Below are positions 10,154 to 54,081 of a stretch of DNA of 64,000 bases, in pieces. Numbering within the stretch: the first letter of the stretch is position 1; the number at the start of each line of letters is the position of its first letter. The translations under genes were made by a program, and so were the position numbers. The stretch lies in contig JAYODW010000003.1 of assembly GCA_038116745.1 (NCBI GenBank), forward strand, positions 64,274 through 128,273. The letters are read 5' to 3'. The notes under the pieces are model-generated. The model saw only the letters and a program-made list of their open reading frames with translations. It searched no databases and had not been told where the DNA came from. The DNA is from Gammaproteobacteria bacterium. Its GTDB lineage: Bacteria > Pseudomonadota > Gammaproteobacteria > Ga0077536.

Positions 10154-10187
10154 CCCCGCGCTTGGAATAATTGCACGGGCCTGCCGG

Positions 10188-10994
10188 GTGAACCGCACCG
10201 ATCGCACGCCGTGGGTGGTGGCTGGTGTTGCGCTGCTCGTGGCCCTGGGGCTCAAACTGCAGACAACTGGACCCTCACCCGCGCCGCGCCGCACTGCGCC
10301 TGCAATAGTTGAGGAGAGCAACGCTGCGGCGCATGAGCCCGCCCACGCGCACGCCGCGATGATGCCGGCAGCGGGGTTGGATCTGTCCCGCACGGCCGAG
10401 TTTGATTTTGATCCCCCGGTAGCAGGGACCTATAGGCTCCCGGTGATCCGGCCGGCGGCTGACGGCGCCGTGCTCGATAGCGCCGGGACCGCGCGCACGC
10501 TGCACGAGCTCTACGCCGGACGCATCGTTCTGCTCAGCTTTATCTACACCCGCTGCACAGATGCCAACGGCTGCCCGCTGGCGACGGCGGTGCTGTATCG
10601 CATTTTCGGCGCCAGTCAGGCGGACGCAGAGCTGGCCGCAAACCTGCGCCTGGTCAGCCTGAGCTTCGACCCGGAACATGACACCCCCGAGGTCATGGCT
10701 GGCTACCGGGATGGTGCAGGGCCGCAGTGGGCAGATGGGGCCGAGTGGTTGGATCTCACAACTGCATCAGAGGCTGAGCTGCAGCCTATCCTCAACGACT
10801 ACGATCAGCTTGCGCGGCGACGGGTCGATGACGCAGGCCGGCCGACGGATGTGTTCGGCCACCAGCTGCGCGCCTATCTCATCGATCGGCAGCAGCGGAT
10901 CAGGAACATCTATGGCCTCGGCTTCATGGATCCGCGGCTGCTGGTGGCGGACGTGCGGACCCTGCTGGCCGAGGAACGCGGCGCGGCGCACTGA
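10188..10994 (+). CDS. SCO1/SenC-family thioredoxin-fold copper chaperone
   Basis: N-terminal TM/signal segment and a thioredoxin-like core with YTRCTDANGCP...H. It lies directly downstream of the SBP56 gene. GTG start. Confidence 0.7.
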   Translation: MNRTDRTPWVVAGVALLVALGLKLQTTGPSPAPRRTAPAIVEESNAAAHEPAHAHAAMMPAAGLDLSRTAEFDFDPPVAGTYRLPVIRPAADGAVLDSAGTARTLHELYAGRIVLLSFIYTRCTDANGCPLATAVLYRIFGASQADAELAANLRLVSLSFDPEHDTPEVMAGYRDGAGPQWADGAEWLDLTTASEAELQPILNDYDQLARRRVDDAGRPTDVFGHQLRAYLIDRQQRIRNIYGLGFMDPRLLVADVRTLLAEERGAAH

Positions 10995-10998
10995 GCTG

Positions 10999-29094: not shown

Positions 29095-30723
29095 ATGAAT
29101 CAGGGGTATGCCATGGACCAGCAGAAAAAAGGACAGACAGACTACGACGCGATTGTGATCGGAGCCGGCTTCGGCGGCCTGCGCATGCTGCATGAGCTGC
29201 GTGAGCTCGGATTAACCGCACTGGTGGTTGAGGCGGGAACTGACGTCGGCGGCACCTGGTACTACAACCGCTATCCCGGGGCCCGGACCGACAGCGAAGC
29301 CTGGCTCTATGCCTTTTCCTTTTCGCAGGAGATCCAGGACCGTTGGGACTGGGCCGAGCGCTTTCCCAGTCAGGGGGAGGCCCTGTCTTACCTGCAGTAC
29401 GTCGCCGAACACTGCGATATGCGTAAGGACATCCGGTTCAGTACCCGGGTAACCGGTGCGTGTTACCAGGAGTCTGACGACCGCTGGGAGGTGGCCACCG
29501 ATGACGGTAAGACCCTGACGTGCCGTTATTTCATTACCGCGACAGGACCCCTGTCGACGCCGTATCGACCGAACTTTCCCGGGATCGATGAGTTCCGCGG
29601 TGAGTGGTACCTGACGGGCAACTGGCCGAAAGAGCCGGTGAGCTTCAACAATAAACGGGTCGCTGTGATCGGCACCGGCGCCACGGCCGTCCAGGCGATC
29701 CCGCTGATCGCACAGACCGCGGCGGAGGTGACCGTCTTCCAGCGCACGCCGAATTACGTTCTGCCGGCGCGTAACGCGCCGCTGAGCGACCACGATCGTG
29801 AGCGCTACCGCAAGAACTATGACGCTATCTGGGCGCGCACCCGTGAGCAGGCGTTTGCGTTCGATTTCAATGACGCCGGGCGTAACCTGGGGGATGTCTC
29901 ACCGGAGGAGTGCCGCCGCATTCTCGAGCGCGGCTGGGAGATCGGTACCTTCCGTTTCCTGTTTGAGACCTTCGACGACATTTTCGTCGACGAGCATGCC
30001 AACGAAGTCGTGTCAGAGTTCGTGCGCGACAAGATCCGCTCGATCGTGACCGATCCCGAAACCGCCGAGCTGCTCTGTCCTAAGGATCATCCCCTCGGGG
30101 CCAAGCGTCCGCCGCTGGGACACTTCTATTACGAGACCTTCAACCGCGACAACGTGAAGCTGGTCAATATCCGTGACAACCCGATCACCGGGATCAGCGA
30201 GAAGGGTGTGCTGGTGGGCGATGCAGAGTACGAGGCGGACCTCATCGTCTTCGCCACCGGATTCGACGCCGTGACGGGCACGCTCAACCGGCTCGATATC
30301 CGTGGCCGCGATGGTGTGGCGCTGAATGACCGGTGGCTGGGCGGACCGAGTACCTATCTCGGGATCACGGTGGACGGCTTTCCGAACCTGTTCATGGTCG
30401 GCGGCCCGCAGACGCCTTTCGCCAATATCCCGGTGATCATCGACGGCTGCGTCGACTGGATCGGGCGCGCCATCAAGCATCTGCGCGACTCCGGCAGCGC
30501 GGTCATGGAGCCGCGCTCAGAGGCCGTGAGCAGCTGGGGCCAGCATATGAACGAGCTGGTGAATATGACGGTGCTGCCGCGCTCTCAGGGCTCCTGGTTC
30601 ATGGGCGGCAACATACCCGGCAAGCCGCGTGCGGTGCTCTTCTACTTCGGCGGCGCCGGTAACTACCGCAAGGAATGCGACGCGGAAGCGGAGAGCGGGT
30701 ACCCGGAATTCAAGGTCGCCTGA
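29095..30723 (+). CDS. Baeyer-Villiger-type flavin monooxygenase, paralog 2
   Basis: AIVIGAGFGG, GGTWYYNRYPGARTD, fingerprint FRGEWYLTGNWP (Leu in place of His), VIGTGATAVQ. An alternative ATG at 29113 is preceded by AGGGG. Confidence 0.8.
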   Translation: MNQGYAMDQQKKGQTDYDAIVIGAGFGGLRMLHELRELGLTALVVEAGTDVGGTWYYNRYPGARTDSEAWLYAFSFSQEIQDRWDWAERFPSQGEALSYLQYVAEHCDMRKDIRFSTRVTGACYQESDDRWEVATDDGKTLTCRYFITATGPLSTPYRPNFPGIDEFRGEWYLTGNWPKEPVSFNNKRVAVIGTGATAVQAIPLIAQTAAEVTVFQRTPNYVLPARNAPLSDHDRERYRKNYDAIWARTREQAFAFDFNDAGRNLGDVSPEECRRILERGWEIGTFRFLFETFDDIFVDEHANEVVSEFVRDKIRSIVTDPETAELLCPKDHPLGAKRPPLGHFYYETFNRDNVKLVNIRDNPITGISEKGVLVGDAEYEADLIVFATGFDAVTGTLNRLDIRGRDGVALNDRWLGGPSTYLGITVDGFPNLFMVGGPQTPFANIPVIIDGCVDWIGRAIKHLRDSGSAVMEPRSEAVSSWGQHMNELVNMTVLPRSQGSWFMGGNIPGKPRAVLFYFGGAGNYRKECDAEAESGYPEFKVA

Positions 30724-31742: not shown

Positions 31743-33254
31743 CTACAGGCCCAGTTTTTCGTGCAGGCCGATACGCTGCACCTTGCCAGTCGCCCCCTTG
31801 GGGATCTCTTCCAGGATAAGTACCTGCCGGGGCACTTTGAAATCCGCCAGGCGCACGGCGGCGAACCCACGCAGCTCGTCCGTGCTCGCCTGCGCGCCTT
31901 CGCGCAGGACGACGGCCGCTGCGACCTCTTCGCCGAGCTTGTCATGTGGCACGGCGAAGGTCACCGCCTGGGCCACGGCCGGATGGTCGAGCAGGACCTC
32001 ATCGACCTCCCGCGGACTGATCTTCTCGCCGCCGCGGTTGATGATCTCCTTAAGCCGTCCAGTCAGGGCGAGATAGCCGTCGGCATCGATGACACCCTGA
32101 TCCCCGGTGCGGAACCATCCGGCGCTGAACGCGTCTGCGTTCGCGCCCGGATTGCTCTCGTAACCGGCGGTCACGTTAGGGCCACGGATCACGACTTCTC
32201 CGATCTCTCCGTCGGCGAGGAGCTGCCCGTCGGCATCCATGATGGCGACTTCCGGACCGGCGGGCAGTCCGACTGCGCCGGGCTTGCGCGCCGCCGGGGG
32301 CAAAGGGTTAGAGGTCATCTGATGCGCGGCCTCGGTCATGCCGTAGGCCTCGATGACCGGACAGCCGAAGGCGGCTTCCAGCTCCGCCATGACCTGCGGC
32401 GGCAGCGAGGAAGAGGACGACCGGATGAGGCGCAGCGCGAGGCGGCTGATCAGCTCGGCCTGACGCGCTGCGCGGGCAAGGATCGCCTGGTGCATGGTGG
32501 GGACGGCGGTGTACCAGGTGGGCGCGGCGTCCTCCAGCCAGCTGAACACGCGCAGCGCGTTGAAGCCCGGGGTGCAGTACACCGAGCCACCAGCGGCGAG
32601 GCTCGACAGCACGGCCGCGATCAGGCCGTGAATGTGGAACAGCGGCATGATGTTCAGGCAGCGATCGTCCGGCGTCAGCGCCAGCGAAGCGCCGATGTGA
32701 CGGGCAGACGCGCAGATGTTGGTGTGGCTCAGAGGCACGATTTTCGGGCGTGAAGTCGTGCCGGAGGTGTGCAGCACGAGGGCGGTGTCCTCAGGCGCCG
32801 CGGGACCACCATGGCTGATCGTGCGGTCGCCGGTGGGCAGGGTGAAAGCGCCGGCGGGCGCGTCTTCTGCAACCGCGATTTCATACACCGGCACACCGAG
32901 TTCGCTGGCGACGTCGCGCGCGGGCGACGTGCTGCCGGTTTCGATCAGCAAGGCCCGGGCGTTCAGATCCTCCAGATAAAACCTGAATTCCTCGGCACGA
33001 TAGGCCGGATTCAGCGGTGCCGTGGTCGCGCCCGCGGCCACGGCAATAAACGCAGCTGCCATTTCCGGACCGTTGGGCAGCACGATCGCTACCCGATCAT
33101 TGCGGCCGATCCCCAGCCGGTTGAGCCCGGCGATGGTGTCAGCGATCAGCGCGCGCAGGGCGGCGTAGTGCAGCACAGGGCGCTGCGGCGCACAGAGCGC
33201 GACAGCGTCATCTGGTGCTGCGTGCAGCAGTTCGCGCAGGGTGACGGCGGACAT
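31743..33254 (-). CDS. AMP-dependent synthetase/ligase (acyl-CoA synthetase family)
   Basis: AMP-binding motif TSGTTSRPKIV and a C-terminal lysine region (PKGATGKVQR). 503 aa. Confidence 0.85.
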   Translation of the reverse strand: MSAVTLRELLHAAPDDAVALCAPQRPVLHYAALRALIADTIAGLNRLGIGRNDRVAIVLPNGPEMAAAFIAVAAGATTAPLNPAYRAEEFRFYLEDLNARALLIETGSTSPARDVASELGVPVYEIAVAEDAPAGAFTLPTGDRTISHGGPAAPEDTALVLHTSGTTSRPKIVPLSHTNICASARHIGASLALTPDDRCLNIMPLFHIHGLIAAVLSSLAAGGSVYCTPGFNALRVFSWLEDAAPTWYTAVPTMHQAILARAARQAELISRLALRLIRSSSSSLPPQVMAELEAAFGCPVIEAYGMTEAAHQMTSNPLPPAARKPGAVGLPAGPEVAIMDADGQLLADGEIGEVVIRGPNVTAGYESNPGANADAFSAGWFRTGDQGVIDADGYLALTGRLKEIINRGGEKISPREVDEVLLDHPAVAQAVTFAVPHDKLGEEVAAAVVLREGAQASTDELRGFAAVRLADFKVPRQVLILEEIPKGATGKVQRIGLHEKLGL

Positions 33255-34825: not shown

Positions 34826-36100
34826 TTGAACCCAGGCGCACTGCTGAAACACCCGCTGCTTGTCGCAGGACTGGTCGCGGTCGTCATCGCCCTAGTGATG
34901 TTTCGTCCGCGTGCCGCGGATGAGTCGCCAATCCGGATCGGGATCCTGCACTCGCTGACCGGCGCCATGGCGATAAGTGAGCGCAGTATGGTCGACGCCG
35001 AGCTGCTGGCGGTCGAGGAAATCAATCGTGGTGGCGGTCTGCTCGGGCGACAGGTCGAGGCCGTTGTCGCTGATGGTCAGTCGGACTGGCCGACCTTTGC
35101 GCGAGAGGCAGAACGACTGATCTCGGAAGAGAAAGTGGTGACGGTGTTCGGCTGCTGGACGTCGGCCAGTCGAAAGACCGTGAAGCCGGTGTTTGAACAG
35201 CATGATCACCTGCTGGTTTACCCCATGGCCTACGAGGGCCTCGAACAATCTCGCAATATCGCCTACATCGGCGCCGCACCTAATCAGCAGGTCACGCCGG
35301 CCCTGACCTGGGGCGTCGAAAATCTGGGCAAGCGCGTGTTCCTGGTGGGTTCGGACTACGTGTGGCCGCGCACCATCAACGCGATCATGAAGGACATGCT
35401 GCCAAGCCTCGGCGCGGAGCTGGTCGGCGAGAGCTACGTGTTTTTCGGGAGCACGAAACTCGACCAGACCGTGGCAAAGATCAAGGCTGCCGCACCGGAC
35501 TTGGTCATCAGCTCAGTGGTGGGCGACAGCAATCCCGCGTTTTATCGTGCGCTGCGTGAAGCCGGCATCAGCGCTGAATCGACACCCGTTCTGACCTTCA
35601 GCATCGGTGAGTCGGAGCTGCTAGAGATGGATCCGCTGGATGTCAGCGGGCACTTTGCCGCCTGGAGCTATCTGCAGAGCCTGCCGGGGCAAACCAATCA
35701 GGAGTTCATCGCTCGATTCCGCGAGCGGTTTGGCGCTGAGCGGGTAACCAGCGACGTGATTGCTACCGCCTACAGCAGCGTCCTGCTGTGGGCACAGGCA
35801 GTGGAACAGGCGCAGAGCATCGAAGTCGATCAGATCCGTACTGCGCTGTACGGGCAGAGCATCGCAGCGCCGGAAGGGATCATTTCGGTGGATGCAGCGA
35901 CCGGGCATGCATGGCGCTCGATCTCGATCGGCCGAATCAATAAGTCGCGCGGTATCGATCAGGTATGGGCGCTGGAGCGACCCATTCGCCCGGTGCCTTT
36001 TCCCAGCAGCCGCACGCCGGCAGCCTGGCGCATGTACCTGGACCACCTGTATCAGGCCTGGGGCAACAGCTGGGCTAACCCGGAGGAGAGCGCGCTGTGA
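34826..36100 (+). CDS. Periplasmic ligand-binding protein of the LivK/UrtA/AmiC family (Peripla_BP_6)
   Basis: Signal/TM leader followed by [39 protein letters not shown], which is UrtA/AmiC-like. Probable TTG start. Its stop overlaps the next gene's GTG (GTGA). Confidence 0.7.
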
Positions 36101-38469
36101 AGGATATTCCAGGGCTATCTCTTAATCCGCTCAGTGAAAATTTTGCGGCCTCACCGCAGCTGACGCTGGAAGATCTTGAACGCCTGGCGGATGCCGGGTT
36201 CAAGAGTGTGATCAACAATCGCCCTGATTTCGAGGGCGGCCCCGAGCAGCCAACCAGCGCGCAGATGGCGCGTGCTGCAGAAGCGCTGGGGCTGCAGTTC
36301 GCGGCCCTGCCGGTGGTCATGAGCCAGATCAACGATGCCGACGTCGCGGCTTTCTCCAGGCTGTTGAAGACCTTGCCCGCGCCTGTCTGCGGCTACTGCG
36401 CAGTGGGTGGTCGCGTGAAAAAACTCTACGAGCTCGCGCAGGCCCGCCGGCGCCCCATCGTTCCACTCGCCCGGCGTCTGGTCCTGGGCATGGTGCTGAT
36501 AGCGGTGCTCGCCTGCTCAGTGCTCGCGCTGGTGGTTGACAGGATGTCGGGGCGGTCGCTCGAGCAGACCTCCCTAAAGAATCTCCTCGCGGTGAGTCAG
36601 CGGAAGGTCAGCCGTCTTGAGGAGTTCGCGTCGGAACTGCTGCGCGGCGTGCATGCCGCGGGTCACAGCACAGAGCTTCAGCAGCTGGTCGCCGATCTGC
36701 AGCGTTCCGCAGACGATGGCAATGACCTGCGGGATACGGCAACTGTTCGGGCACAACTGAAGTCCTATCTCGAGCGTACCTCCGCGCTTTATGGTTTTGT
36801 CAACGCCCTGGTGGCAGCGCCTGATGGCGAGATCCTGTTTGCGCTGAATAGCCAGAGCGCAGAACTTGATGTCGGGGGGAACCTACAGCAGGGCGCTCTT
36901 GAAGATTCGGAGCTGGCGCGTCTGTTCGCGAGGACCAGGGCGCTGAAGCAGGAGGAGATATCCCGCTATGGGGTCTATTCCGGGATGGTGGCGCCTGCTG
37001 TTTTTGTGGCCGGCCCGGTCCTGCATCGCAACCATCTTCAGGGCGTGTTGCTGCTTCAGATCGACAACATGGCGCTGCGGCGCATCCTGTTGGATTACAC
37101 CGGGCTGTACAGCACCGGAGAGGTGTTGGTTGCGCAACGTGACGGAGACGCCGCCGTGCTGGTTGCCCCGACCCGCTTCCGGCCTGGAGCCGCTTTTGCG
37201 GAAGAATCCCGCGTGCCGCTGGGATCGGAGCGCGCGCTGCCGGTGCAGAAAGCTGTGCTGGGAAGTCGATGGTATGGGCTGTACGTTGACGAGCGCGGTG
37301 AGCAGACCATTGCGATTGCGAGCTACTCGCCCGCGTTCGAGTGGGGCATCGTGGTCAAACAGGATGTCGACGAAGCGCTGGCGCTGGTGGACGAGCAGAG
37401 ATCGATGACCGCCTACGTACTGCTCGCGCTCTCTCTGCCGATCGTTCTCGGCGCCCTTGTTTTCACGCGCAGCATCACGTCCCCGGTCCGGTTTGCGGCT
37501 ACCGCCGCGGAGCAGCTGCAGGCTGGTGATCTGACAGTTGCTGTCTCAGATCCGAAGCGCAACGATGAGACGGGTGTGCTGATCTCCGCGCTCAAGTCGC
37601 TGGTCACCTATCTGCGCACGCTGGTGAGCAATTTCAAAAGCGTCAACGCGACCATCGGCGCGGCGACCGAAAGCATGGTCGCCACGACCCGGGTGCAGGA
37701 AGAAGGAGTCCAGACCGTCAGCACATCGAGCGCTGAGATTGCCGCCAGCGCGCGGCAGATCGCTGCAACGGCGGAGGCGCTGCTGACATCAATGCGCGAA
37801 GTGGCGGACCGACTGCGGGAGACCGCCGAGCTGGCTACCAAGGGGCGGGACAACATCGCCAGCATGAACAGCAACATCAGGGACATGTCGGATGGCAGCG
37901 AGGCGATCAGTGGACGACTGGACGTGATTGCACAGCGGGCGGAGAAAATTACTGAAGTGGTCAGCACCATCACCAAAGTCGCGGACCAGACCAACATGCT
38001 GTCCCTGAACGCCGCCATTGAAGCCGAGGTTGCCGGAGAAGCGGGCCGTGGCTTCGCTGTGGTGGCGCAGGAGATCAGACGTCTGGCCGACCAGACCGCC
38101 GTCGGCACGCTGGATATCGAGCAGATGGTGAGGGAAATGCAGGCCGCGGTAGCCGGCGGCGTGCAGGAGATGGCTGCGTTTGAAAACATGGTCGAGAGCC
38201 GTGTGCAGGCCTCGGTGGCGACCTTTGAGCAGCTGGGCCTGATCATCGAGCAGGTCGAACTGCTGCAGCCGCAGTTTGAAACCGTCAATGAAGGAATGCG
38301 GTCGCAGGCGGTCGGCGCTACCCAGATAGCCGGTGCTATGAGTCAGTTGACCGACGTGGCTGCCGGCACCCGCGATTCGATCGCCGAGCTGATTAAGATC
38401 ACCAACGAAATGAATGCGGCGGTGGCGGTTCTCAATTCGGCGACACTCCGCTTCCATACCGGTGACTAG
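36097..38469 (+). CDS. Methyl-accepting chemotaxis protein with an N-terminal DUF442-like (Blh/sulfur-transferase-like phosphatase) domain
   Basis: The C-terminal MCP signalling domain [33 protein letters not shown] is highly conserved. HAMP and TM segments are present. The N-terminal ~125 aa ([18 protein letters not shown]...CGYCAVGGR) resemble DUF442. GTG start overlapping the upstream stop. Confidence 0.7.
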
Positions 38470-38695
38470 CGCGCTTCTTGATGACCTGTCGTCGTCACCA
38501 TTTTCGAGCTCGCTTGGCGCTGCAGCCCGTTTTTTCCTGTTGACTGCCAGCGTTGGTGGTCACCCGACCCGCACCTTTCTCCCGCTGACTGCTCGCCCTG
38601 ACTTTGAGTGCCGTGGTCAGCGCGGCGTGCTTCTGCATGAAGCGACTCATGCCCGGCGACTTCGACCGGCTCTAACTCCGATGGCTGATTGATCT

Positions 38696-39535
38696 TTGGA
38701 CGCGGTCGCCGCTCTGGCCGAGCATCTGCCGCTGGTGCTCACTCTCTGCGCCGCGGGGGCGGTCGCGGGTATGACCGCGGGTCTGTTCGGCAACGGCGGT
38801 GGCTTTGTCATCGTGCCCGCGCTGGTGACCTTGCTGGATGCTTACGCTGGCACTCAGCGGGAGCTGATTTACACCGCGATAGGGACCTCTCTTGCATGCA
38901 TCACGCTCACGACCGCGCGGGCGGTGCTGGCGCACCGGCGGCAAGGCGCGGTTGATTTCGGCGTCGTGCTCAGCTGGGCCGGGTGGGTATTTCTAGGCGT
39001 GCTGGCCGGGCTCAGCGTGGCCTCTCACGTCAATGCCAATGCGCTGTTTTTTTTGTTCAGCGGGGGGGTATTGGTTTACTCGGTGTATTTCCTCTTTCCT
39101 GACCGTTTCAATCTGCGCCGCAAACAAGCGCAGATGCCGGCGGGGATCGCCCGCGCCGCACTCGCAGCTGCACTCGGGGCATTTTCTTCGATCCTCGGGA
39201 TCGGTGGCGGGACGATTACCGTGATCACCATGGTTACCTGTGGGCGTCCCATACATCAGGCTGTGGCGACGGCGTCGGGCGTCGGTTTCGTGATCGGCTT
39301 GACCGGCGCGCTGGGTTTTCTCTGGATGGGCCTGGGACAGCCGAGCGCGGTGTTCGGCTCGATCGGCTATATGAACGTGCCTGCGTTGCTTGCGATAAGC
39401 AGCCTGTCTCTCGTGACAGCGCCGATTGGCGCTGCCTGGGCGCACCGTCTTGATGGCCGCAGGCTCAAACAGATTTTTGGTGTCTATCTGCTGCTGGTGT
39501 CATGCTCCATGTTCTATAAGGGCTTGACTCTTTAA
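38696..39535 (+). CDS. TauE/SafE (TSUP, DUF81) family anion exporter
   Basis: Eight TM helices with an internal repeat (GxGGG) typical of TSUP permeases. Confidence 0.75.
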   Translation: MDAVAALAEHLPLVLTLCAAGAVAGMTAGLFGNGGGFVIVPALVTLLDAYAGTQRELIYTAIGTSLACITLTTARAVLAHRRQGAVDFGVVLSWAGWVFLGVLAGLSVASHVNANALFFLFSGGVLVYSVYFLFPDRFNLRRKQAQMPAGIARAALAAALGAFSSILGIGGGTITVITMVTCGRPIHQAVATASGVGFVIGLTGALGFLWMGLGQPSAVFGSIGYMNVPALLAISSLSLVTAPIGAAWAHRLDGRRLKQIFGVYLLLVSCSMFYKGLTL

Positions 39536-39578
39536 CGTGACTGCCGGTGGATCCGAGCGACTGACGGGAGGACTGAAA

Positions 39579-40718
39579 ATGGACGGAATAAACGACAGAC
39601 GCATCTTTCTCAAAGGCGCTGCAGCGGCGGCCGGATTGTCGGCGCTGTCGGGATTAGTTGGCGCGCGGGCAGTGACGGACGGTTCTGACATCCTCGTGCC
39701 TGAGCCCGGGATCGCCAAGCTCAACGCTAATGAAAACCCGACCGGACCCAGCGCCAGGGCCAAAAAAGCGATCGCGGAAGCTGCGCAGTACAGTGCGTAC
39801 TACGTTGGAGAAAACGTCAGGCGGCTCAAGTCAATGATTGCAGAGCGTCACGGTTTGAGTACCAGCAACGTTGCGCTCAGCTCAGGTTCCAGCGGGGTAT
39901 TGACCTATCTGGCTGTGGCGGCATCTCGCCGCGGTGAGATCCTCTGCGCCGATCTGTTCTGGGACACCACTGCCAAGGCGGCAGAGCGACAGGGGGCGGT
40001 GCTTCGTCGGCTGCCGAAATCTCCGGACCTCAGCATCGACCTTGGACAGATGGCGGCTGGGATCACGTCCGCCATCGCGCTGGTGCATGTCACCAATCCG
40101 AACAATCCCACCGGCCTGATGCAGGAGCCCGAGGCGTTACGGAAATTCTGCCGCACGGCGGCGGCCAAGACCTACGTACTGGTCGACGAGGCTTACAACG
40201 AGGTCACTGACGATCCGGCACGAAACTCGATGGTCGATCTGGTCCGTGAGGGTCACAACGTAGCGGTCGCGCGCACCTTCTCCAAAATCTACGGGCTTGC
40301 CGGCCTGCGCATCGGGTACATGCTCGGTAGTGAGGAGATCATCGAGCAGGTCAATCAATTCAGTCTGGGAGACTACGCGCTCAATCAGGCGGGTGTTGCG
40401 GCGGCGCTTGCCAGCTATAACGACGAGGCGTTTATTCGCTATTCCAAAGCCATCATCCTGGAGGGTCGCGGGATGATTGAAGAAGCGGTGCGCTCACACG
40501 GGCTGCGCTCTCTGCCGTCACAAACCAATTTTTTGTTTGTGGATCTGGGTGGGCTCAATGCGGAGACTTTCCGCGCGGAGATGGCGCAGCGTGGCGTTCT
40601 CATTCGAGGCATTTATCGGGACTACACCAACTGGTCCCGCGTCAGCATGGGGCGCCTGTCCGACGTGCAGAGCTACGTCGACGTGCTGCCGCAGGTGCTG
40701 GAAGCGATGAACGCCTGA
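39579..40718 (+). CDS. Class I/II PLP-dependent aminotransferase (HisC family) with a twin-arginine (Tat) signal peptide
   Basis: MDGINDRRIFLKGAAAAAGLSALSGLVGARA is a Tat-type leader. The mature part has LNANENPTGPS and the conserved YGLAGLRIGY region. GGGAGG RBS 7 nt upstream of the ATG. Confidence 0.75.
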   Translation: MDGINDRRIFLKGAAAAAGLSALSGLVGARAVTDGSDILVPEPGIAKLNANENPTGPSARAKKAIAEAAQYSAYYVGENVRRLKSMIAERHGLSTSNVALSSGSSGVLTYLAVAASRRGEILCADLFWDTTAKAAERQGAVLRRLPKSPDLSIDLGQMAAGITSAIALVHVTNPNNPTGLMQEPEALRKFCRTAAAKTYVLVDEAYNEVTDDPARNSMVDLVREGHNVAVARTFSKIYGLAGLRIGYMLGSEEIIEQVNQFSLGDYALNQAGVAAALASYNDEAFIRYSKAIILEGRGMIEEAVRSHGLRSLPSQTNFLFVDLGGLNAETFRAEMAQRGVLIRGIYRDYTNWSRVSMGRLSDVQSYVDVLPQVLEAMNA

Positions 40719-41997
40719 ACAAAAGGACGTGAAGCACCAGGGACCTCCAGCCCAGCGGTAGCCTGGCGTGGCCGCCGCGCCTGATGCAGGCGGCAGTGCA
40801 AACGATGCGGTCTTGCGGTGTGCGATGGATTCGAAGGCTTGCTTTTCCTGGGTGAGGTTTCGCGACAATTCGCGCAGGATCGGCTGGCGTCCGCGAGGGC
40901 TTTTGCGGCCATCAGAGCGGTCTGTCTGCCAGGTCAGGCACTTTCCTGAGAAATGACAAGGACAGACTGGTATCGGTGCTGTGTCATTGTCTGTGAAGAC
41001 GTTTCAGGAGATTCGTTTCAGCAGCCTGGCGCGGCGTCAAGCCTCCGGTTTTGCATCCAATCAAAAGCCACTGGCGACTAGGCTTCGGGTTACCTTCAAC
41101 CAGGTCCTGAGTCTCGGTCCCGAGGATTAACCTGTAGCCCTCGTGCGTCTACTACCAGATTGAAAGCCAGATCAGTCGTCGGCGCTGAGTTTTTTCAGAT
41201 ACTGACGTGCGGGGGAAATCGCGAATATGGTTCATTTATTTACTGAAAAGGAATTAATTAATAAGCCGTGCAGCGGTTATCCATCATAGTTAGAGCGGAT
41301 GAGGGCGCAGACGAGCGAGCGAAGATGGGCAGCTTTGGGTGCGCGTGACTGAAGCGCAGGGGGATTCTCGACGCTTTGCATGCGGAAGCAGTATTGCGAA
41401 TCCCAGCCTGTCGTCGCGACTGAGGCCGGTCGATTTGCGAACAAGTGGCAGATGAAAGAGCCGCTCAAAATAAAGTACCGAACAGGAAATTTATTACAAA
41501 TAAAACGCGCTCTTGCTGCTTCAAAGGATGTCTGACGTGAGAAGTGTGTTGGAAGCGTTTTGAACTGCTTACGTTTTTGAAACCCACGCCCGGGTGGCTG
41601 CGGTCGCATTCACGGAGGCAGCCCGTCGGACGGAGAGAGCCGTGGCGACGCCGCCTACCTGGACGCAGACGCGAGCAGAATCCAGTGGACTCCAGGCTGC
41701 CTAATGGATACAGCGCCTGTCGGCGCTGAATAAGCACGTGCAGCCGCGTGTCCCCGCGGTCCTCGCGTGTAGTGCGCGCAACCTTATGGGACGTCCATGC
41801 ACTCGAGCTTCGCTGTGGACAAGCGCACCTCCAAACAGCTGCAGCAACACCCATCAGACCATCGCATCAGGTCATGGCATTCATGTTCTGGACACGACTG
41901 GCGCGAGACCGCACACGCCGGTTGTGGAGACAGGGATCTCCTCTGATGAGAGCTCCGCGGAGATCGGAGGCGATTGACCAGACCCCGACGAAGAACT

Positions 41998-42699
41998 TCA
42001 GAAGTTCAGTAGGAGCGTGACTGAGAGCACGTGATTGACCGCGTCCGGCTGCCCGCTGCGCGTAATCCACTGATTTAGATAGCCAACCTCCCCGCGCGCG
42101 CTGGGCGCGAGACGCACGCCCACACCTGCAAACAGTCGGTTCTGATCCAGACCGTCATCAGCACCCCAGTCAGTGTCGTTGAGATTGACGAAAAATTCGT
42201 CCCAGGCTGACAGATAAAGCCGTCCGTCGAAGGCCAGCGGGCGCGACACCTTGCTCAGGTGTCGGAAGCGCCATCCGGTATCGTCGAAGCTCTCGACGGT
42301 GCGCTGCTCGAGCCGTGTGCGGGTCGAGAGCGAAAACCCCAGCAGCGGCGCTTCTTTGCTCCAGGTCAGCTGCTGCCAGTAACGGTGCTCGGTTACGTCT
42401 TCATCTGTTCCCTGCGGATCGTTATTGATATGTCCGTAGCCCGCCCAGAGGACCGTCCGCGGTCTTATGCGGTAGCCCGCGGCAGCTCGCAGCAGGCTCT
42501 GGTTGAGATGTGAGCTGTCATCGTCGTACCGCCCCTGAGCTTCGAGCCAGACGCGATAAGGGGCTTCTTTTCCGGCTGGCGAAACGGTGGCAATGACTGC
42601 CGCCCAGGTCTGGAAGTCCTCGACCGTGTCGGCTATGACGCTCAATGGGAGCAGCGCAAGAATCAGGAGACTGCTGAGAATAATCGTTCGAAATTTCAT
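41998..42699 (-). CDS. DUF2490-family outer-membrane beta-barrel protein
   Basis: Signal peptide, alternating amphipathic beta-strands and a C-terminal Phe. Confidence 0.55.
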   Translation of the reverse strand: MKFRTIILSSLLILALLPLSVIADTVEDFQTWAAVIATVSPAGKEAPYRVWLEAQGRYDDDSSHLNQSLLRAAAGYRIRPRTVLWAGYGHINNDPQGTDEDVTEHRYWQQLTWSKEAPLLGFSLSTRTRLEQRTVESFDDTGWRFRHLSKVSRPLAFDGRLYLSAWDEFFVNLNDTDWGADDGLDQNRLFAGVGVRLAPSARGEVGYLNQWITRSGQPDAVNHVLSVTLLLNF

Positions 42700-42895
42700 A
42701 GTTTTTTTACGGGAAAGGTCGTTAATCGGCTCACTCGGAAAGGGCTCAGGGTAGCGTCGGATGGCGCAGCTGGGAAACCGCCCCCGATCAGCACTGTCGG
42801 GAGAGCGACCGTTTTCCGCCTCGTTCAGACCTGTTTGACACGCGCGTCGAGCTTACGGAAGCATCTCGTCGGGACATTCATGTGGAGTAGAGCAA

Positions 42896-43684
42896 ATGCA
42901 GGTCACTCAGCTCGGGCGGGTCTTCGTGAAGGCAACGCGCTTTCTGCATCCGGCAGAGGTGGCGGTGGACGCGGACGGGATCCGGCATGACCGGTCTTTC
43001 GGTCTGGTCGAGGCTGACGATCGCTTTGTCGGCTCGGCGCAACACAGCGAGTTCATTCCACTCACCTTTGAGCTATCGGACGACGCTTCCGAGCTCCAGC
43101 TGACGTGGCCGGATGGCAGTTCCCTGTCGGGTCCAGCAGCGGCAACCGGGCGCGCTTTTGAAATTGATCATCACGGACTCCGCGGGGTAAGCGTGCGCGA
43201 GGTGGCGGGTCCATGGCAGGAGGCGCTTTCTGCGTTTGCCGGGCGTCCTCTGCGGCTGGTGCGCTGTCTTTCTGCCGGCGGCGCTATCGACGTGCTGCCC
43301 GTTACCCTGACGACCACCGGCTCATTGCGGCGCCTCGCCGGAGTGGTCGGTGCGGAGGTCGATGCAGCTCGTTTTCGCGCCGGTATCGTGCTGGCGAACG
43401 ACGAAGCCCACGCGGAGGACGGCTGGGACGGACAGCAGCTGCGGGTGGGCGATGTGTTGCTGCGTATGCGCACTGCGGTGCCGCGTTGCCAGATCACCGG
43501 CTTCAATCCGGCATCCGGCATTGCAGACCAGGCCGTGATGCAGGCGCTGATCAAGTATCGGGAAAAAGTACACCTGCCGGACGGCATGCTGCCCGACTAC
43601 GCGACGCCGGGTTTTGCTTCTTATTGCGAGGTGATCGAACCGGGGCGGATTAAGCTCGGAGACAGCGCCGAACTGCTTCCCTGA
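42896..43684 (+). CDS. MOSC-domain protein (YcbX-like, MOSC_N beta-barrel plus MOSC)
   Basis: The conserved cysteine is in its usual context (AVPRCQITGFNP). 262 aa. Confidence 0.7.
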   Translation: MQVTQLGRVFVKATRFLHPAEVAVDADGIRHDRSFGLVEADDRFVGSAQHSEFIPLTFELSDDASELQLTWPDGSSLSGPAAATGRAFEIDHHGLRGVSVREVAGPWQEALSAFAGRPLRLVRCLSAGGAIDVLPVTLTTTGSLRRLAGVVGAEVDAARFRAGIVLANDEAHAEDGWDGQQLRVGDVLLRMRTAVPRCQITGFNPASGIADQAVMQALIKYREKVHLPDGMLPDYATPGFASYCEVIEPGRIKLGDSAELLP

Positions 43685-43803
43685 AAAGCATCTTTCCTGA
43701 CTTCTGCGCTCGGGGTGGGCGCTTCGCGAGCGCGCCACCGGGCCCTGTTGCTAGACTCACAGATGAAACGCAGCAGCGCCGTCACCGCGGAGGGGAGGAA
43801 ACG

Positions 43804-45930
43804 ATGTCAGCAGTTATGAAATCTACGCATCACGGAGGCTGTCCCCATGACTGCCCCGATACCTGTTCCATGGTCTTTGAAGTTGAGGACGGCAAGCTGG
43901 TGGGTGTACGGGGAAATCCCGAACATCCGATGACCCGCGGCGGTCTCTGCGTCAAGCTGCGTGACTACGAGAAGCGCCACTACCACCCGGAACGTCTGCT
44001 TTATCCGATGCGCCGCACGGGGCCCAAGGGCAGCGCGAGTTTCGAGCGTATCAGCTGGGAGGAGGCGCTCGATGCGATAGAAAACCGATGGCGGGCCATC
44101 ATTGACCAGTATGGTGCGCAGGCCATCGCGCCTTACAGCTACCTGGGACACCAGGGGCTGGTCCACGGTCTGAACGGTGGCGATGCATTTTTTAATCGCC
44201 TCGGCGCGACCGTCATGGAACGGACGTTCTGCGGTGAGGGATCGGCCACCGCGTGGCTCATGACCTACGGTCCGAGCGGCGGACTTGACCCTGAATCATT
44301 CCGGCACGCCCGCTACATCGTGATCTGGGCATGCAATAGCGTGAGCACCAATCTGCATCACTGGCATATCGTCAAAGATGCGCAGAAATCCGGCGCTAAA
44401 GTCGTCGTCATAGATGCCTACGCGTCGCGGACCGCCAAAGAGGCTGACTGGCATATTGCGCCCCGGCCGGGAACTGACGGCGCGCTGGCGATGGCGCTGA
44501 TCAACGTGCTGTGCGCCGAGGGTCTGGTCGATCGGGACTATGTCGACAACTACACTGTCGGCTTTGACGAGCTCGCCGAAAGGGCCGCGGACCGCACACC
44601 CGAGTGGGCGGCTGATATCACCGGGGTCCCGGCCGAGGAGATCCGCCGACTCGCGCGGGAGTACGCCGCAACCCAGCCCGCGGCCATGCGTATCGGTGTG
44701 GCGCTTGAACGGCATCGTGGCGGAGGCCAGACCATCCGCGCAGTGTGCTGTCTGCCGGCGCTGACCGGCGCCTGGCGGCACGTCGGTGGCGGGATCCTGG
44801 CGATGCCCGTGTGGGAACACCCCTACAACTTCCAGGCTATCTGTCGACCGGACTGGATCCCGTCCGGGACCCGCGTCGTGAACAACCTGCAGCTGGGGCG
44901 CCTGTTAACGGGTGAGATCCCGCTCGACCCGCCCATTAAATCGCTCATGTGCTGGAACTCGAACCCGGTTACACAGGCGCCGGAAGGCGACCGGATCGTA
45001 GCCGGGCTTGAGCGTGAAGATCTGTTCCTCGTCGTGGCTGAACACTTCGTCACGGATGTGGCAGCCTACGCGGACATCCTGCTGCCGGCCTCAATGGGTG
45101 CCGAGATGGAAGACATCATTCTGTCCTGGGGCCACAACTACCTGACATATAACGCGAAATGCGTCGAGTCGCCGGGTGAAGCGGTACCTAACCGTGAGAT
45201 CTTCCGCCGTCTCGCTGCGCGGATGGGCTTCGATGAACCGGAATTCCAGTGGTCGGACGGGGAGTGCCTCGAACATTTTGTTGACTGGGCATCGCCGGCC
45301 TGTGCCGGTTTCGATCTGACGCATCTGCGCGAGCACGGGTTCGCGCGTCTGGCGCTGGGCGGTGCTGACGAGCGCGCGCCGCATCGTGAAGGCGCGTTTC
45401 CAACGCCCTCCGGTAAGTGTGAGTTCAAGTCGAGCATTGCCGCGGGCGGTAACTTCGTCGCGCCGCCGTTCCGTCAGATGTACGAGCACCTGCAGGGCGC
45501 AGAGCCGCTGGATGCGCTGCCGGACTACGTGCCTTCGCGCGAAAGCCCGGCGAGTAACCCGGCGCTGGCCAGGCGCTATCCGCTCAACATCGTATCTCCC
45601 AAGAGTCACGGTTTTCTGAATTCCTGCTACGCCAACATGACTCAGAAGATCCGCGGTCAGGGCGAGCAGTTCGTCATGGTCAGTCCTGTGGATGCCGCTG
45701 CCCGCGGTATCAGGGAGGGGGATGTGGTCCGCGTGTTCAACGATCGCGGTGCGTTCGAAGCCGCAGCGCAGATTACCGCTGATGTGAATCCCGGTGTGGT
45801 GGTTGCCACCCTGGGCTATTGGCGACAGCTGAACCGCGGCACGGTCAACGTCGTCAGCTCAGCAGAGTTTGCCAATATGGGGCACGCGCCGAGTTTTTCT
45901 GACAACCTGGTCGAAGTGCAGAAAGCCTGA
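43804..45930 (+). CDS. Molybdopterin-dependent oxidoreductase (MopB superfamily) with N-terminal Fe-S cysteine cluster; cytoplasmic
   Basis: HHGGCPHDCPDTCS...LC cysteine motif followed by the MopB molybdopterin-binding domains. No Tat signal. Confidence 0.7.
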   Translation: MSAVMKSTHHGGCPHDCPDTCSMVFEVEDGKLVGVRGNPEHPMTRGGLCVKLRDYEKRHYHPERLLYPMRRTGPKGSASFERISWEEALDAIENRWRAIIDQYGAQAIAPYSYLGHQGLVHGLNGGDAFFNRLGATVMERTFCGEGSATAWLMTYGPSGGLDPESFRHARYIVIWACNSVSTNLHHWHIVKDAQKSGAKVVVIDAYASRTAKEADWHIAPRPGTDGALAMALINVLCAEGLVDRDYVDNYTVGFDELAERAADRTPEWAADITGVPAEEIRRLAREYAATQPAAMRIGVALERHRGGGQTIRAVCCLPALTGAWRHVGGGILAMPVWEHPYNFQAICRPDWIPSGTRVVNNLQLGRLLTGEIPLDPPIKSLMCWNSNPVTQAPEGDRIVAGLEREDLFLVVAEHFVTDVAAYADILLPASMGAEMEDIILSWGHNYLTYNAKCVESPGEAVPNREIFRRLAARMGFDEPEFQWSDGECLEHFVDWASPACAGFDLTHLREHGFARLALGGADERAPHREGAFPTPSGKCEFKSSIAAGGNFVAPPFRQMYEHLQGAEPLDALPDYVPSRESPASNPALARRYPLNIVSPKSHGFLNSCYANMTQKIRGQGEQFVMVSPVDAAARGIREGDVVRVFNDRGAFEAAAQITADVNPGVVVATLGYWRQLNRGTVNVVSSAEFANMGHAPSFSDNLVEVQKA

Positions 45931-45981: not shown

Positions 45982-47643
45982 ATGCGCAACGCGCAAAGTG
46001 GTTCGGCCGCGATGCCCGTCGGGGCTATAGCCCATGTCGATGTGGTCATCGTCGGCGCCGGTTTCGCCGGCCTGCAGGCACTCTATCGACTGCGCGAACA
46101 CGGTCTCAGCGTGCGTCTGCTCGAAGCGGGCGATGGGGTCGGCGGGACCTGGTTCTGGAATCGCTATCCCGGTGCACGGGTCGATTTCGAGAGCTTCGAG
46201 TACTCGTTCTCTTTTTCCAGCGAGCTCGAACAGGACTGGTGCTGGTCCGAGCGTTTTCCCGCCCAGCCCGAGCTGCAGCGCTATCTGGAACATGTCTGCG
46301 CACGCTTTGATCTGGCTCGCGACATACAGCTTGAAGCGCGAGTGCAGGAGGCGATATTCGACGCCGAGTCTTGCCGCTGGCGGCTCCGCACGGAAAACGA
46401 CGAAACGATTTCCTGCAGCTTCTGCATCATGGCCACCGGTCTGCTCTCTGCGCCCAGAGAGCCTGAATTTCGCGGACTTGAGGAGTTCCGTGGCGCGCGC
46501 TACCTCACGGCGCGCTGGCCGAAAGAATCCGTCGATTTCAGCGGGCTCCGGGTCGGGGTGATCGGGACCGGGTCGAGCGGCGTGCAGGTGATTGGTGCGC
46601 TGGCGCGGGAGGTTGAAGAACTGTTCGTGTTCCAGCGCACCGCGCCTTTCGTGGTGCCGGCTCATAACAGGCCGATGGACTCCGCGTACGAACGTGCGAT
46701 CAAGGCGCAGTACGCCACCCTGCGGCGCCACGAGTTCCTGTCCGAAACCGGGATAGGACTGCTCGATGGCGCAGTCGAGGCGTTGCCTTTGCCGCGTCAT
46801 GTCAGTGCGCTGGCGGTGGATGCGACGACACGTGAAGCGGAGTTCGAACGGCGCTGGCGGAACGGCTCGCTGTGTTTTCTGAACGCGTTCAACGATCTCA
46901 TTTTCGACCTCGAGGCTAACGAGACGCTGGCGGAGTTCCTGCGCGAAAAAATTCGCGCCCAGATCGATGACCCGGCTCTGGCGCAGAAGCTCCTGCCGCA
47001 GGGCTATCCGGTATTTTCGCGGCGACTCTCGGTCAGCGACGACTACTACGCGAGCTTCAACCGCGGCAACGTGACGCTGGTTGACCTCAACGAAACCCCT
47101 TTAACTCGTTTTACGCCTGGCGGGCTCACGGTGGGTAAGCGCGAGATAGCGCTCGATGCGGTGATCTTTGCAACCGGCTTCGATGCCCAGACCGGCGCGC
47201 TGACGCGGATTGATATCCAGGGACGCGACGGGTGCGAGCTGCGCAGCAGCTGGCAGCAGGGGCCGGATAATTACCTGGGACTCATGACCCCCTGCTTCCC
47301 GAATCTTTTCTATCTCTGCGGACCGGGTAGTCCGACCGCCTTTTACCCACCGATCCTGCTGGCTGAATATCAGACAGATTGGTTGATCAAGATCTTTGAT
47401 GCGATGAAAGCGCGCGGCAAGCGGACTATTGAGCCGCGAACCGCAGCGGCGCAACGCTGGCTGCATCATTCACGCGAGATGGCGAACGCGACAGTCTTTC
47501 CGCGCGGCCACTCGTGGTACATGGGCACGAACGTCGCCGGCAAACCGGTTGGCCTGCTTTCCTACATCGGCGGGTTTACGCAGTACCGCAGCTGGATGGA
47601 AGAAACCATCGCCGGTGGTCTGACAGACTTCGAAGTGGATTAG
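45982..47643 (+). CDS. Baeyer-Villiger-type flavin monooxygenase, paralog 3
   Basis: VVIVGAGFAG, GGTWFWNRYPGARVD, fingerprint FRGARYLTARWP (Leu in place of His), VIGTGSSGVQ. Confidence 0.8.
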   Translation: MRNAQSGSAAMPVGAIAHVDVVIVGAGFAGLQALYRLREHGLSVRLLEAGDGVGGTWFWNRYPGARVDFESFEYSFSFSSELEQDWCWSERFPAQPELQRYLEHVCARFDLARDIQLEARVQEAIFDAESCRWRLRTENDETISCSFCIMATGLLSAPREPEFRGLEEFRGARYLTARWPKESVDFSGLRVGVIGTGSSGVQVIGALAREVEELFVFQRTAPFVVPAHNRPMDSAYERAIKAQYATLRRHEFLSETGIGLLDGAVEALPLPRHVSALAVDATTREAEFERRWRNGSLCFLNAFNDLIFDLEANETLAEFLREKIRAQIDDPALAQKLLPQGYPVFSRRLSVSDDYYASFNRGNVTLVDLNETPLTRFTPGGLTVGKREIALDAVIFATGFDAQTGALTRIDIQGRDGCELRSSWQQGPDNYLGLMTPCFPNLFYLCGPGSPTAFYPPILLAEYQTDWLIKIFDAMKARGKRTIEPRTAAAQRWLHHSREMANATVFPRGHSWYMGTNVAGKPVGLLSYIGGFTQYRSWMEETIAGGLTDFEVD

Positions 47644-52416: not shown

Positions 52417-54081
52417 CTATCCCCGATGCACTGAGAAGTGCGCGTAGCCGTCAGCTTCGCCCGCCGTGCACTGCTGCCGGTAGTTTTCCAGGCCGCCAAG
52501 ATAGGACAGCAGCGCGCGGGGTTTGCCAGGAATATTGGCGCCCACGTACCAGCTGTTGGCTTTGAACAGCAGACTGCCTTCACCCACCTCGTGCATGTGC
52601 TGCATCCAACCCTCTTCGGCCTCGACAGTAGCTTCAATGACCGTCTCTTCCGCGAAACCCAGGTGCTCGAGACAGCGGTCTATCCATTCCACCTGGTATT
52701 CCGACAACAGCATCGGGCTGACCAGAGCGCCATTGGCGCAGGGCCCGTCGAGAAAAAACAGGTTGGGGAAGCCGACGCTGGCCAGGCCGAGGTAGGCGCG
52801 TGGGGCGCCGGTCCAGTGGTCGTTCAAATCGTGGCCGTTCTTACCCAGCACCTCTATCTGGCTGATCGCGCCGGTGACCGCATCGAATCCTGTCGCGAAC
52901 ACGATGCTGTCGACAGCGTACTCTTCGCCCCGCACGACGAGTCCCGCAGCCGTTAGTTTTTCGATCGGCGAATCTTTGATGGAGATCAGAGTGACGTTAT
53001 CCCTGTTGTAGGTCTCGTAATAGTTAGTGTCTGCGCACAGGCGTTTTGCCATGATGGGATAGCCGCGCGGCAGCAGCATCTCTGCGACCTCGGGATCGTT
53101 AACCCGCGCGCGCGTTTTTTCGCGCACGAAGTCGGCGAGCGTGTCGTTTGCTGCCTGATTGGTCAGCAGATCGATGAACGACGCGTAAAAACACAGGCCG
53201 CCCGACTGCCAGCGGTTTTCATAATCCGCCAGGCGATCCGCACTGCTGACGGCGAGGGCGCTGTTGTCGTTGGAGAGTGTTGGCTGATTGTTGACCGCGA
53301 TGAACCCTACGCGGGATTCGTAGCGTTGCAGCCGCCGCCATTCCGGGTACATGGCTTTGACGCGGGCTTCGAATTCAGGGTCCAGCGGACCGTTGCGCAG
53401 CGGGATAGAAAACGGTGGTGTGCGCTGGAAGACGAACAGGTGGTCCACCTGTTGCGCAATGATCGGAATGGCCTGGACCGCCGACGAGCCTGTGCCGATG
53501 ACGGCAACTCGCTGTCCGCTGAAATCAACGCCCCCCTCCGGCCAGCGCGAAGTCAGGTATTTGTTCCCGGCATAGTCATCGAGGCCTGCAAAATCAGGGA
53601 TGTTGCCTGAGGAAAGAAAGCCCGTGGCGAGGATGCAGTATTTCGCCCTGACGGTTTCTCCGGACGTGGTTTCGACCTGCCAGTCCCGTGAGGCTTCCTG
53701 ATACCGAGCCGCTGTAACCCGGGTGTTGAGCTGTATGTTCGGCCACAGATTGAAGCGTTCAGCGCAGTGGTTGATGTAACGCTGCAGCTCCGGTTGGCCC
53801 GCGTAGCGCTCGCTCCATGACCATTCCTGCTGCAGGGCTTCGTCGAAAGAGTAGGAATATTCCATGCTCTCGACATCCACCCGCGCGCCGGGATAGCGGT
53901 TCCAGAACCAGGTGCCGCCGATCCCGCTGCCCGCTTCGAACAGGCGGACGCGCAGTCCGCGTTGCTGCATTCGATGCAGCATGTAAAGGCCCGCAAAACC
54001 CGCGCCTACGATGAGCACGTCCAGTTGCTGCTGGTCACAGGAGGTGCTGACAGTCTGTGAACTTGTGCGTGCCTGACTCAT
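52417..54081 (-). CDS. Baeyer-Villiger-type flavin monooxygenase, paralog 4
   Basis: VLIVGAGFAG, GGTWFWNRYPGARVD, fingerprint YAGNKYLTSRWP (Leu in place of His), VIGTGSSAVQ. AAGGAGA RBS. Confidence 0.8.
   Translation of the reverse strand: MSQARTSSQTVSTSCDQQQLDVLIVGAGFAGLYMLHRMQQRGLRVRLFEAGSGIGGTWFWNRYPGARVDVESMEYSYSFDEALQQEWSWSERYAGQPELQRYINHCAERFNLWPNIQLNTRVTAARYQEASRDWQVETTSGETVRAKYCILATGFLSSGNIPDFAGLDDYAGNKYLTSRWPEGGVDFSGQRVAVIGTGSSAVQAIPIIAQQVDHLFVFQRTPPFSIPLRNGPLDPEFEARVKAMYPEWRRLQRYESRVGFIAVNNQPTLSNDNSALAVSSADRLADYENRWQSGGLCFYASFIDLLTNQAANDTLADFVREKTRARVNDPEVAEMLLPRGYPIMAKRLCADTNYYETYNRDNVTLISIKDSPIEKLTAAGLVVRGEEYAVDSIVFATGFDAVTGAISQIEVLGKNGHDLNDHWTGAPRAYLGLASVGFPNLFFLDGPCANGALVSPMLLSEYQVEWIDRCLEHLGFAEETVIEATVEAEEGWMQHMHEVGEGSLLFKANSWYVGANIPGKPRALLSYLGGLENYRQQCTAGEADGYAHFSVHRG

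Follow-up and report, generated by a model that had tools for sequence, protein, structure and literature searches.

Positions 38,696 to 40,718 of the window, by which we mean the whole 64-kilobase (kb) stretch of gammaproteobacterial DNA analysed here, carry two genes in tandem. The first encodes an inner-membrane anion permease of the TauE/SafE (TSUP) family, while the second encodes a pyridoxal phosphate (PLP) aminotransferase with a HisC-type fold and a twin-arginine translocation (Tat) leader. The aminotransferase is very probably a periplasmic PLP enzyme, and a functional coupling between it and the permease is also highly probable, if a little less so. With more reserve, we favour the idea that both genes together make up a module for transamination in the periplasm, where the role of the permease would be to move an anionic reactant, probably a 2-oxo acid. 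Export of HisC-like transaminases by the Tat pathway has precedents in PtaA (PA2531) and in the PRK09105 family that includes the structure PDB 3LY1. The kind of system is therefore known, but the clade described here is a separate one, and its conserved gene arrangement is apparently new. The features of the pair are as follows.

38696..39535, plus strand: gene for a TauE/SafE (TSUP family) inner-membrane anion permease, 279 residues, TTG start (Pfam PF01925)
39536..39578, plus strand: spacer of 43 nucleotides, including the Shine-Dalgarno sequence GGGAGGA at 39566-39572 (read from the sequence)
39579..40718, plus strand: gene for the precursor of a predicted Tat-exported, HisC-fold PLP aminotransferase, 379 residues (Pfam PF00155, NCBIfam, AlphaFold2 (AF2) model, fold match)
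39579..39671, plus strand: twin-arginine signal peptide, residues 1-31, with RRIFLK at 39597-39614 and the ARA cleavage motif at residues 29-31 (motif analysis, conservation)
39672..40715, plus strand: predicted mature periplasmic enzyme, residues 32-379, with the codon of the catalytic Lys236 at 40284-40286 (mapping onto Escherichia coli HisC)

The aminotransferase and its twin-arginine leader

An earlier note on this DNA had read the second gene as a HisC-family PLP aminotransferase, and this assignment is borne out by the domain, model, fold and active-site evidence. The protein matches Pfam Aminotran_1_2 (PF00155) with E = 5.6e-44 and 151.2 bits against a gathering cut-off of 19.7, which places it among the class I/II aminotransferases of fold type I. 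Its best NCBIfam matches are HisC-type models, although every score falls under the cut-off of its model. These are NF006580 for the PRK09105 subfamily (228.3 bits, cut-off 444, with an alignment over residues 6-375 that takes in the leader), TIGR01141 for the HisC equivalog (210.5 bits, cut-off 276.55) and NF051461 for the PtaA equivalog (188.5 bits, cut-off 500). An AF2 model built from 57 sequences has a mean predicted local distance difference test score of 89.7 and is confident over residues 40-379. Its closest fold match is PDB 3LY1 (TM-score 0.83-0.90), followed by many histidinol-phosphate aminotransferases and CobD, and HisC-type structures in general align to it with TM-scores of 0.7-0.9.

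For the active site, the family was aligned to E. coli HisC, whose sequence is identical to PDB 1FG3. With the HisC residue in brackets, the counterparts in the window enzyme are Y75 (Y55), N176 (N157), D203 (D184), Y206 (Y187), T233 (T211), S235 (S213), K236 (K214, the catalytic Schiff-base lysine) and R244 (R222). All PLP-binding and catalytic residues are thus present, and all are invariant in the alignment of 57 sequences. The earlier note had also allowed for a beta-elimination step, to which this full set of transaminase residues lends no support. Also kept are R343 and R354, the counterparts of the two arginines with which HisC holds the phosphate or carboxylate of its substrates; the substrate is therefore likely to be an amino compound with an anionic group. 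In contrast, S105 and W128 stand in the place of D85 and Y110 of HisC, which we take from the HisC structure papers to be its imidazole contacts, and both replacements are invariant in the marine clade to which the enzyme belongs. Because of these replacements, and because the score stays below the TIGR01141 cut-off, the enzyme does not appear to be a HisC of the histidine pathway. As judged from its residues, the window protein has all that it needs for PLP chemistry of the transaminase type, together with a pocket for an anion.

Translated from the ATG at 39579, the aminotransferase begins MDGINDRRIFLKGAAAAAGLSALSGLVGARA, and the Tat leader that the earlier note had recognised at this N-terminus is indeed there. 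It fits the Tat consensus ((S/T)RRxFLK, an uncharged h-region and AxA) with DRRIFLK at residues 6-12 (RRIFL at 7-11), an h-region of 17 uncharged residues with a mean hydropathy of 1.45, and ARA at residues 29-31; as a sequence match, this is far beyond chance. An RR leader is found in 114 of the 120 closest homologues (57-70% identity), the remaining six resembling truncated gene calls, and in a second, more remote family, the homologues of 3LY1, it is found in 117 of 120. Across the 57 aligned sequences, R7 and R8 never vary, and the other leader positions are poorly conserved. Since the twin arginines are held constant while the rest of the leader drifts, selection seems to act on a translated Tat motif. 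Residues 1-39 of the AF2 model are unstructured and of low confidence, as expected of a flexible leader. Taken at the level of sequence, the leader is genuine and conserved, implying export of the enzyme as a folded holoenzyme. No tat genes lie within the 64-kb window. In two SAR86 loci (L071 and L074, ~8033-11161), the TauE-aminotransferase pair stands immediately downstream of tatB-tatC, in a ubiE-ubiB-tat region.

The reading of the leader could be undone if the true start lay downstream, leaving an ordinary cytoplasmic HisC or aromatic aminotransferase. The longest form of the open reading frame (ORF) runs from a GTG at 39537 to 40718, and in-frame TTG or GTG codons are available at positions 20, 32 and 40, but no Shine-Dalgarno sequence precedes any of these three. 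A strong one, GGGAGGA at 39566-39572, is placed about 6-7 nucleotides 5' of the ATG at 39579 and thus serves only the start that includes the leader. The invariant RR amid a drifting leader, the retention of the leader in orthologues, the missed HisC equivalog cut-off and the replaced counterparts of D85 and Y110 (taken to be the imidazole contacts) all tell against a leaderless, HisC-like enzyme. Overall, these sequence features leave a mis-called start essentially excluded, and the leader is no start artefact of the kind that the earlier note had named as its own possible weakness. A 99%-identical copy of the locus in GenBank assembly GCA_038120055.1 carries the same 379-residue gene call.

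The permease and the conserved gene pair

Upstream of the aminotransferase, the 279-residue permease is a clear member of the TSUP family, to which TauE, SafE, TsaS and KbuT belong. Residues 17-272 match PF01925 with 146.8 bits against a gathering cut-off of 32.6, covering profile positions 1-237 of 237, and a crude hydropathy scan gives multiple hydrophobic segments. None of the NCBIfam equivalogs matches it, and a sequence search of the PDB returned no relative. The aminotransferase does start close downstream of the permease gene, as noted earlier, but the spacer measures 43 nucleotides and not 44. No terminator-like or sigma-70-like site occurs in 38300-41300, and hence none between the two genes, so that they are probably co-transcribed.

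What such a permease might carry is suggested by its family. The founding TauE/SafE members handle sulfite and sulfoacetate (PMC11535334, PMC12671195), and the name 'sulfite exporter' goes back to two of them. The range of the family is wider, since sulfate uptake in E. coli can be complemented by a TauE homologue (PMC11535334), Neisseria meningitidis needs the TSUP protein KbuT to use alpha-ketobutyrate (PMC12671195), and evidence for amino- and organic-acid substrates has been summarised (PMC12671195). As the family is not limited to sulfur anions, and with KbuT as an example, an organic 2-oxo acid is a plausible cargo of the window permease. The characterised TSUP members adjoin cytoplasmic sulfonate, sulfate or methylcitrate genes, whereas the partner of the window permease is a predicted periplasmic PLP enzyme.

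The pairing is not peculiar to this genome. A genome scan confirmed at least 504 relatives of the aminotransferase, and among the relatives listed marine Gammaproteobacteria dominate (Alteromonas, Paraglaciecola, Microbulbifer, Halieaceae/Congregibacter, Azotimanducaceae and SAR86), together with one alphaproteobacterium, Nitratireductor. We retrieved 80 loci of these relatives, which dereplicate to 33 lineages (<80% identity), and this sample underlies the neighbourhood counts below. A TauE orthologue (48-71% identity) is the immediate neighbour of the aminotransferase gene in 79 of the 80 loci. Strand could be scored in the 78 loci with sufficiently long matches to both genes, and in every one of these it is the same for the two. 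The neighbour that the earlier note had suggested looking for is thus conserved. The pairwise divergences of the two proteins correlate (Pearson r = 0.77), and a search for homologues of the window TauE yielded nothing but orthologues, 120 of them at 56-98% identity, from similar organisms. This appears to be a conserved two-gene module rather than a pairing found in a single genome, and the partnership is apparently its new part. In three Candidatus Azotimanducaceae loci (L032, L034 and L069) the module is duplicated, with an MBL-fold gene, the aminotransferase, TauE and a second Tat-aminotransferase paralogue on one strand and a DUF3108 gene on the opposite strand.

The exported transaminases that are already known set the frame for this clade. 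PtaA is an ordinary PLP transaminase that the Tat pathway exports together with its cofactor; it acts in the periplasm on pyoverdine and is also present in bacteria that do not produce pyoverdine (PMC6206403). PA2531, the PtaA of Pseudomonas aeruginosa, is an experimentally validated Tat substrate (PMC6085387). Both PtaA and the PRK09105 subfamily are also covered by NCBIfam models already, and the uniqueness that the earlier note implied for an exported aminotransferase does not stand. Our full-text literature searches found periplasmic or exported aminotransferases only in the PvdN/PtaA literature, and a paper on the Alteromonas transport transcriptome makes no mention of the aminotransferase/TauE genes.

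The window protein resembles PtaA in being a HisC-fold PLP transaminase with a twin-arginine leader, and both are encoded outside any histidine operon. It differs from PtaA in its score (188.5 bits where the PtaA model asks for 500) and in that no pyoverdine genes occur in the neighbourhoods examined; the near-obligate TSUP partner is a feature seen in the loci of the marine clade. The PRK09105 group, to which 3LY1 from Pectobacterium atrosepticum belongs, provides the top NCBIfam match and the top fold match and shares the RR leader (117 of 120 members). However, identity to this group is only 26-31%, the arginine aligned with HisC R322 is shifted by one position there (G343/R344 in window numbering), and its genes have no TauE beside them, being either solitary or next to a receptor gene. 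Among the Pectobacterium, Gilliamella, Kushneria and Shewanella loci of this group we found no common partner and no TSUP neighbour, and a receptor in Shewanella only, where the 3LY1-type gene comes after a receptor gene. HisC itself (TIGR01141; PDB 1FG3) has the same fold, PLP-binding residues, catalytic lysine and pair of phosphate/carboxylate arginines, but it is cytoplasmic where the window protein is predicted to be exported, and it is set apart by the model score (210.5 against 276.55 bits) and by the exchange of D85 and Y110 for the invariant S105 and W128. Because it falls below the PtaA and PRK09105 cut-offs and has 26-31% identity to the 3LY1 group, we place the window protein in a third, separate clade.

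Neighbours and regulation in relatives

All ORFs of the 80 loci were clustered, and apart from the pair itself few neighbours recur. Those that do are the following.

TonB-dependent receptor (cluster 2), about 880 residues: 44 of 80 loci, 10 of 33 dereplicated lineages
LysR regulator, best match Nac: 27 of 80 loci, 4 of 33 dereplicated lineages
Cytoplasmic MBL-fold protein: 23 of 80 loci, 4 of 33 dereplicated lineages

A census by Pfam of 112 ORFs that flank the pair in 32 lineages gave a similar picture, the only repeated families being TonB-dependent receptors, LysR regulators and outer-membrane barrels; genes for sulfonate, sulfite or taurine metabolism were absent from it. NCBIfam and PDB sequence searches on the specificity of the receptor matched only its generic plug and barrel regions. 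Outside the clade, a 42%-identical Tat-aminotransferase gene of Novosphingobium starts on the last base of the stop codon of a receptor gene. A further cluster, c13, consists of secreted proteins of about 370 residues that have no Pfam match; it adjoins the pair in nine loci (L010, L017, L031, L036, L049, L052, L061, L065 and L075) from 6 of the 33 lineages. In Paraglaciecola loci, including L013, L015 and L020, the gene of a DASS/CitMHS anion (dicarboxylate/sulfate) symporter lies directly upstream of TauE on the same strand, and a gene for a CsiV-family peptidoglycan-binding protein lies beyond the receptor.

Sigma-54-like boxes (-24/-12) are remarkably common. Counted when at least 9 of 11 positions match, they precede TauE in 18 of 77 loci and the receptor gene in 19 of 42, against a background of 2.6% for random windows and of 8.3% for the upstream regions of other genes. 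They are spread over several separate lineages, including Microbulbifer, Paraglaciecola, Congregibacter and SAR86. In the SAR86 loci L071 and L074, the box TGGCATGTAGATTGCA lies just upstream of TauE. Four Microbulbifer loci (L064, L068, L081 and L046) have a well-conserved box, CTGGCACGCTTATTGCT, some 200-300 nucleotides upstream of the start codon of the receptor. The leader that follows it is long and holds conserved blocks such as TCTCTGCACCAAAAG, which, on their sequence conservation, may be a regulatory element. The best Fur box upstream of every TauE and receptor gene matched 13 of 19 positions, which is background level, and a siderophore-type role is therefore unsupported. Riboswitch searches of the window and four relatives (Rfam, gathering thresholds) returned only rRNA and tRNA.

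The window itself has none of these additions. A tblastn search of the window with the conserved neighbour families gave no LysR or MBL homologue; its only matches were four paralogous flavin monooxygenases and an acyl-CoA ligase. The four monooxygenases (FMO/Baeyer-Villiger type, about 550 residues) are encoded within 35 kb, at 19036-20373 (+), 29221-30570 (+), 46117-47493 (+) and 52555-53943 (-), and near them are the acyl-CoA ligase gene at 31752-33131 (-) and a ketopantoate-reductase-like gene. On the 5' side of the cassette (34826-38469, plus strand), the gene for a UrtA-like periplasmic binding protein (TIGR03407, 451.8 bits, just below the cut-off) overlaps by 4 nucleotides the gene for a 790-residue methyl-accepting chemotaxis protein (MCP). 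The latter has an N-terminal BLH_phosphatase/TIGR01244 'sulfur transferase' domain, followed by Cache-like, HAMP and MCP signalling domains. The domain order is an unusual chemoreceptor architecture, and this gene pair could possibly form a binding-protein-dependent chemosensor. On the 3' side (41998-45930) are a gene for a DUF2490 protein (minus strand), a gene for a MOSC-domain protein and a gene for a 708-residue molybdopterin oxidoreductase, which has an Fe4S4 domain and is presumably cytoplasmic because it lacks a Tat leader.

Proposed mechanism, alternatives and significance

The mechanism that we propose builds on what is observed, namely the enzyme class, the conserved leader, the conserved gene pair and, in relatives, the association with receptors and promoters. 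The aminotransferase would fold and bind PLP in the cytoplasm, be exported by the Tat pathway through its RRIFLK leader and be cut after ARA. Once in the periplasm, it would work as a HisC-fold, PtaA-like transaminase on an amino compound that has an anionic group and is not histidinol phosphate. This substrate would enter the periplasm through porins or through a dedicated receptor; in about a third of the related lineages, a dedicated TonB-dependent receptor would bring it in from outside. The co-transcribed TSUP permease would carry one anionic partner of the transamination across the inner membrane, and it could do so in either of two directions. It might take up the 2-oxo-acid product, completing a route from receptor to enzyme to permease, or it might export the 2-oxo-acid amino acceptor that converts pyridoxamine phosphate (PMP) back to PLP. 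We put forward each direction only tentatively, and give both about the same weight.

Export of the acceptor would suit nitrogen scavenging, which is hinted at by the sigma-54 promoters, the Nac-like regulator and the DASS symporter upstream of TauE in Paraglaciecola. Where the dedicated receptor is present, the module often has a sigma-54-type promoter or a Nac-like LysR gene at its side, which suggests that it serves to scavenge a scarce nutrient (probably nitrogen) and not to synthesise a compound. One could go further and speculate about a nitrogen-harvesting shuttle, in which the permease would export a 2-oxo acid that accumulates under nitrogen limitation (2-oxoglutarate or pyruvate) and the exported transaminase would load it with amino groups from compounds that the cell cannot import. 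In some lineages the TonB-dependent receptor would deliver these compounds, and the resulting glutamate or alanine would enter by ordinary transporters. In this specific form, we consider the idea rather doubtful.

Several points weigh against a transamination module with a 2-oxo-acid permease. Actual export, the substrate and the direction of transport are all things that we infer, and the direction of a TSUP protein cannot be read from its sequence. The receptor accompanies the pair in only about a third of the lineages, and the tblastn search of the 64-kb window found no TonB-dependent receptor there. Nor is there a sigma-54 box near the window cassette, so that what we say about uptake and regulation comes from the relatives. 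The sampled loci are related and not phylogenetically independent, and the sigma-54 promoter statistics are inflated as a result. Lastly, the PRK09105/3LY1 family has no TSUP neighbour, which means that a permease is not a general requirement of periplasmic transaminases.

Other readings of the pair have to be set against this one. The earlier note had placed a transamination or beta-elimination of a sulfonate or sulfur-containing amino compound (such as taurine, cysteate or cysteinolate) in the periplasm, with TauE moving the sulfonate or sulfite. In its favour, the founding members of the permease family handle sulfite and sulfoacetate; moreover, the two kept arginines could hold a sulfonate in place of the phosphate of HisC, and the conserved TauE pairing fits as well. 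Yet no sulfonate or sulfite families appear in the flanking-ORF census or among the conserved neighbour clusters, TSUP substrates extend to sulfate and alpha-ketobutyrate, and sulfite released in the periplasm would need no exporter. We therefore consider a sulfonate or sulfur substrate unlikely. A tailoring reaction comparable to that of PtaA, in which the enzyme would modify an N-terminal glutamate or another amino group on a secreted or recycled metallophore or other periplasmic metabolite, with TauE exporting the precursor and the receptor re-importing the product, seems to us more improbable still. The only characterised relative does exactly this on pyoverdine, and receptors adjoin the aminotransferase gene in several clades; but the PtaA model is missed by far (188 bits for a 500-bit cut-off), the neighbourhoods contain no biosynthetic genes (non-ribosomal peptide synthetase or siderophore), the receptor and TauE genes have no Fur box better than 13/19, and the pair is present in the streamlined genomes of SAR86.

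It is also conceivable that the permease carries no substrate at all and instead supplies the cofactor, by exporting PLP or removing PMP. PLP is an organic anion, and PMP, not being covalently bound, could leak from the periplasm; the regeneration of the cofactor there is an acknowledged open issue, a review of pyoverdine stating that PLP must 'somehow' be regenerated from pyridoxamine (PMC6206403). Against this, there is no precedent in the form of a TSUP member known to carry vitamin B6 compounds, and the PRK09105 family manages without a TSUP neighbour, which makes cofactor supply a very improbable role. The transamination module with an anionic partner, probably a 2-oxo acid, thus remains the reading that we prefer.

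To our knowledge, very few instances of periplasmic PLP chemistry have been described, essentially those of PvdN and PtaA in the maturation of pyoverdine. The clade described here shows that exported HisC-like transaminases, as predicted from their leaders, are common in abundant marine Gammaproteobacteria, where a dedicated anion permease of the inner membrane accompanies them, often joined by an outer-membrane receptor of their own. It would also correct thousands of annotations as 'histidinol-phosphate aminotransferase' and 'sulfite exporter'. With only two genes, the module is a simple and genetically tractable system in which to ask how periplasmic transamination obtains its co-substrate and recycles its cofactor. 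It would gain greatly in interest should the permease turn out to provide the amino acceptor: export of the acceptor, or a nitrogen shuttle built on it, would, if true, answer how periplasmic transaminases regenerate PLP from PMP. More broadly, the module points to an unrecognised route by which marine heterotrophs may process amino compounds before taking them up.

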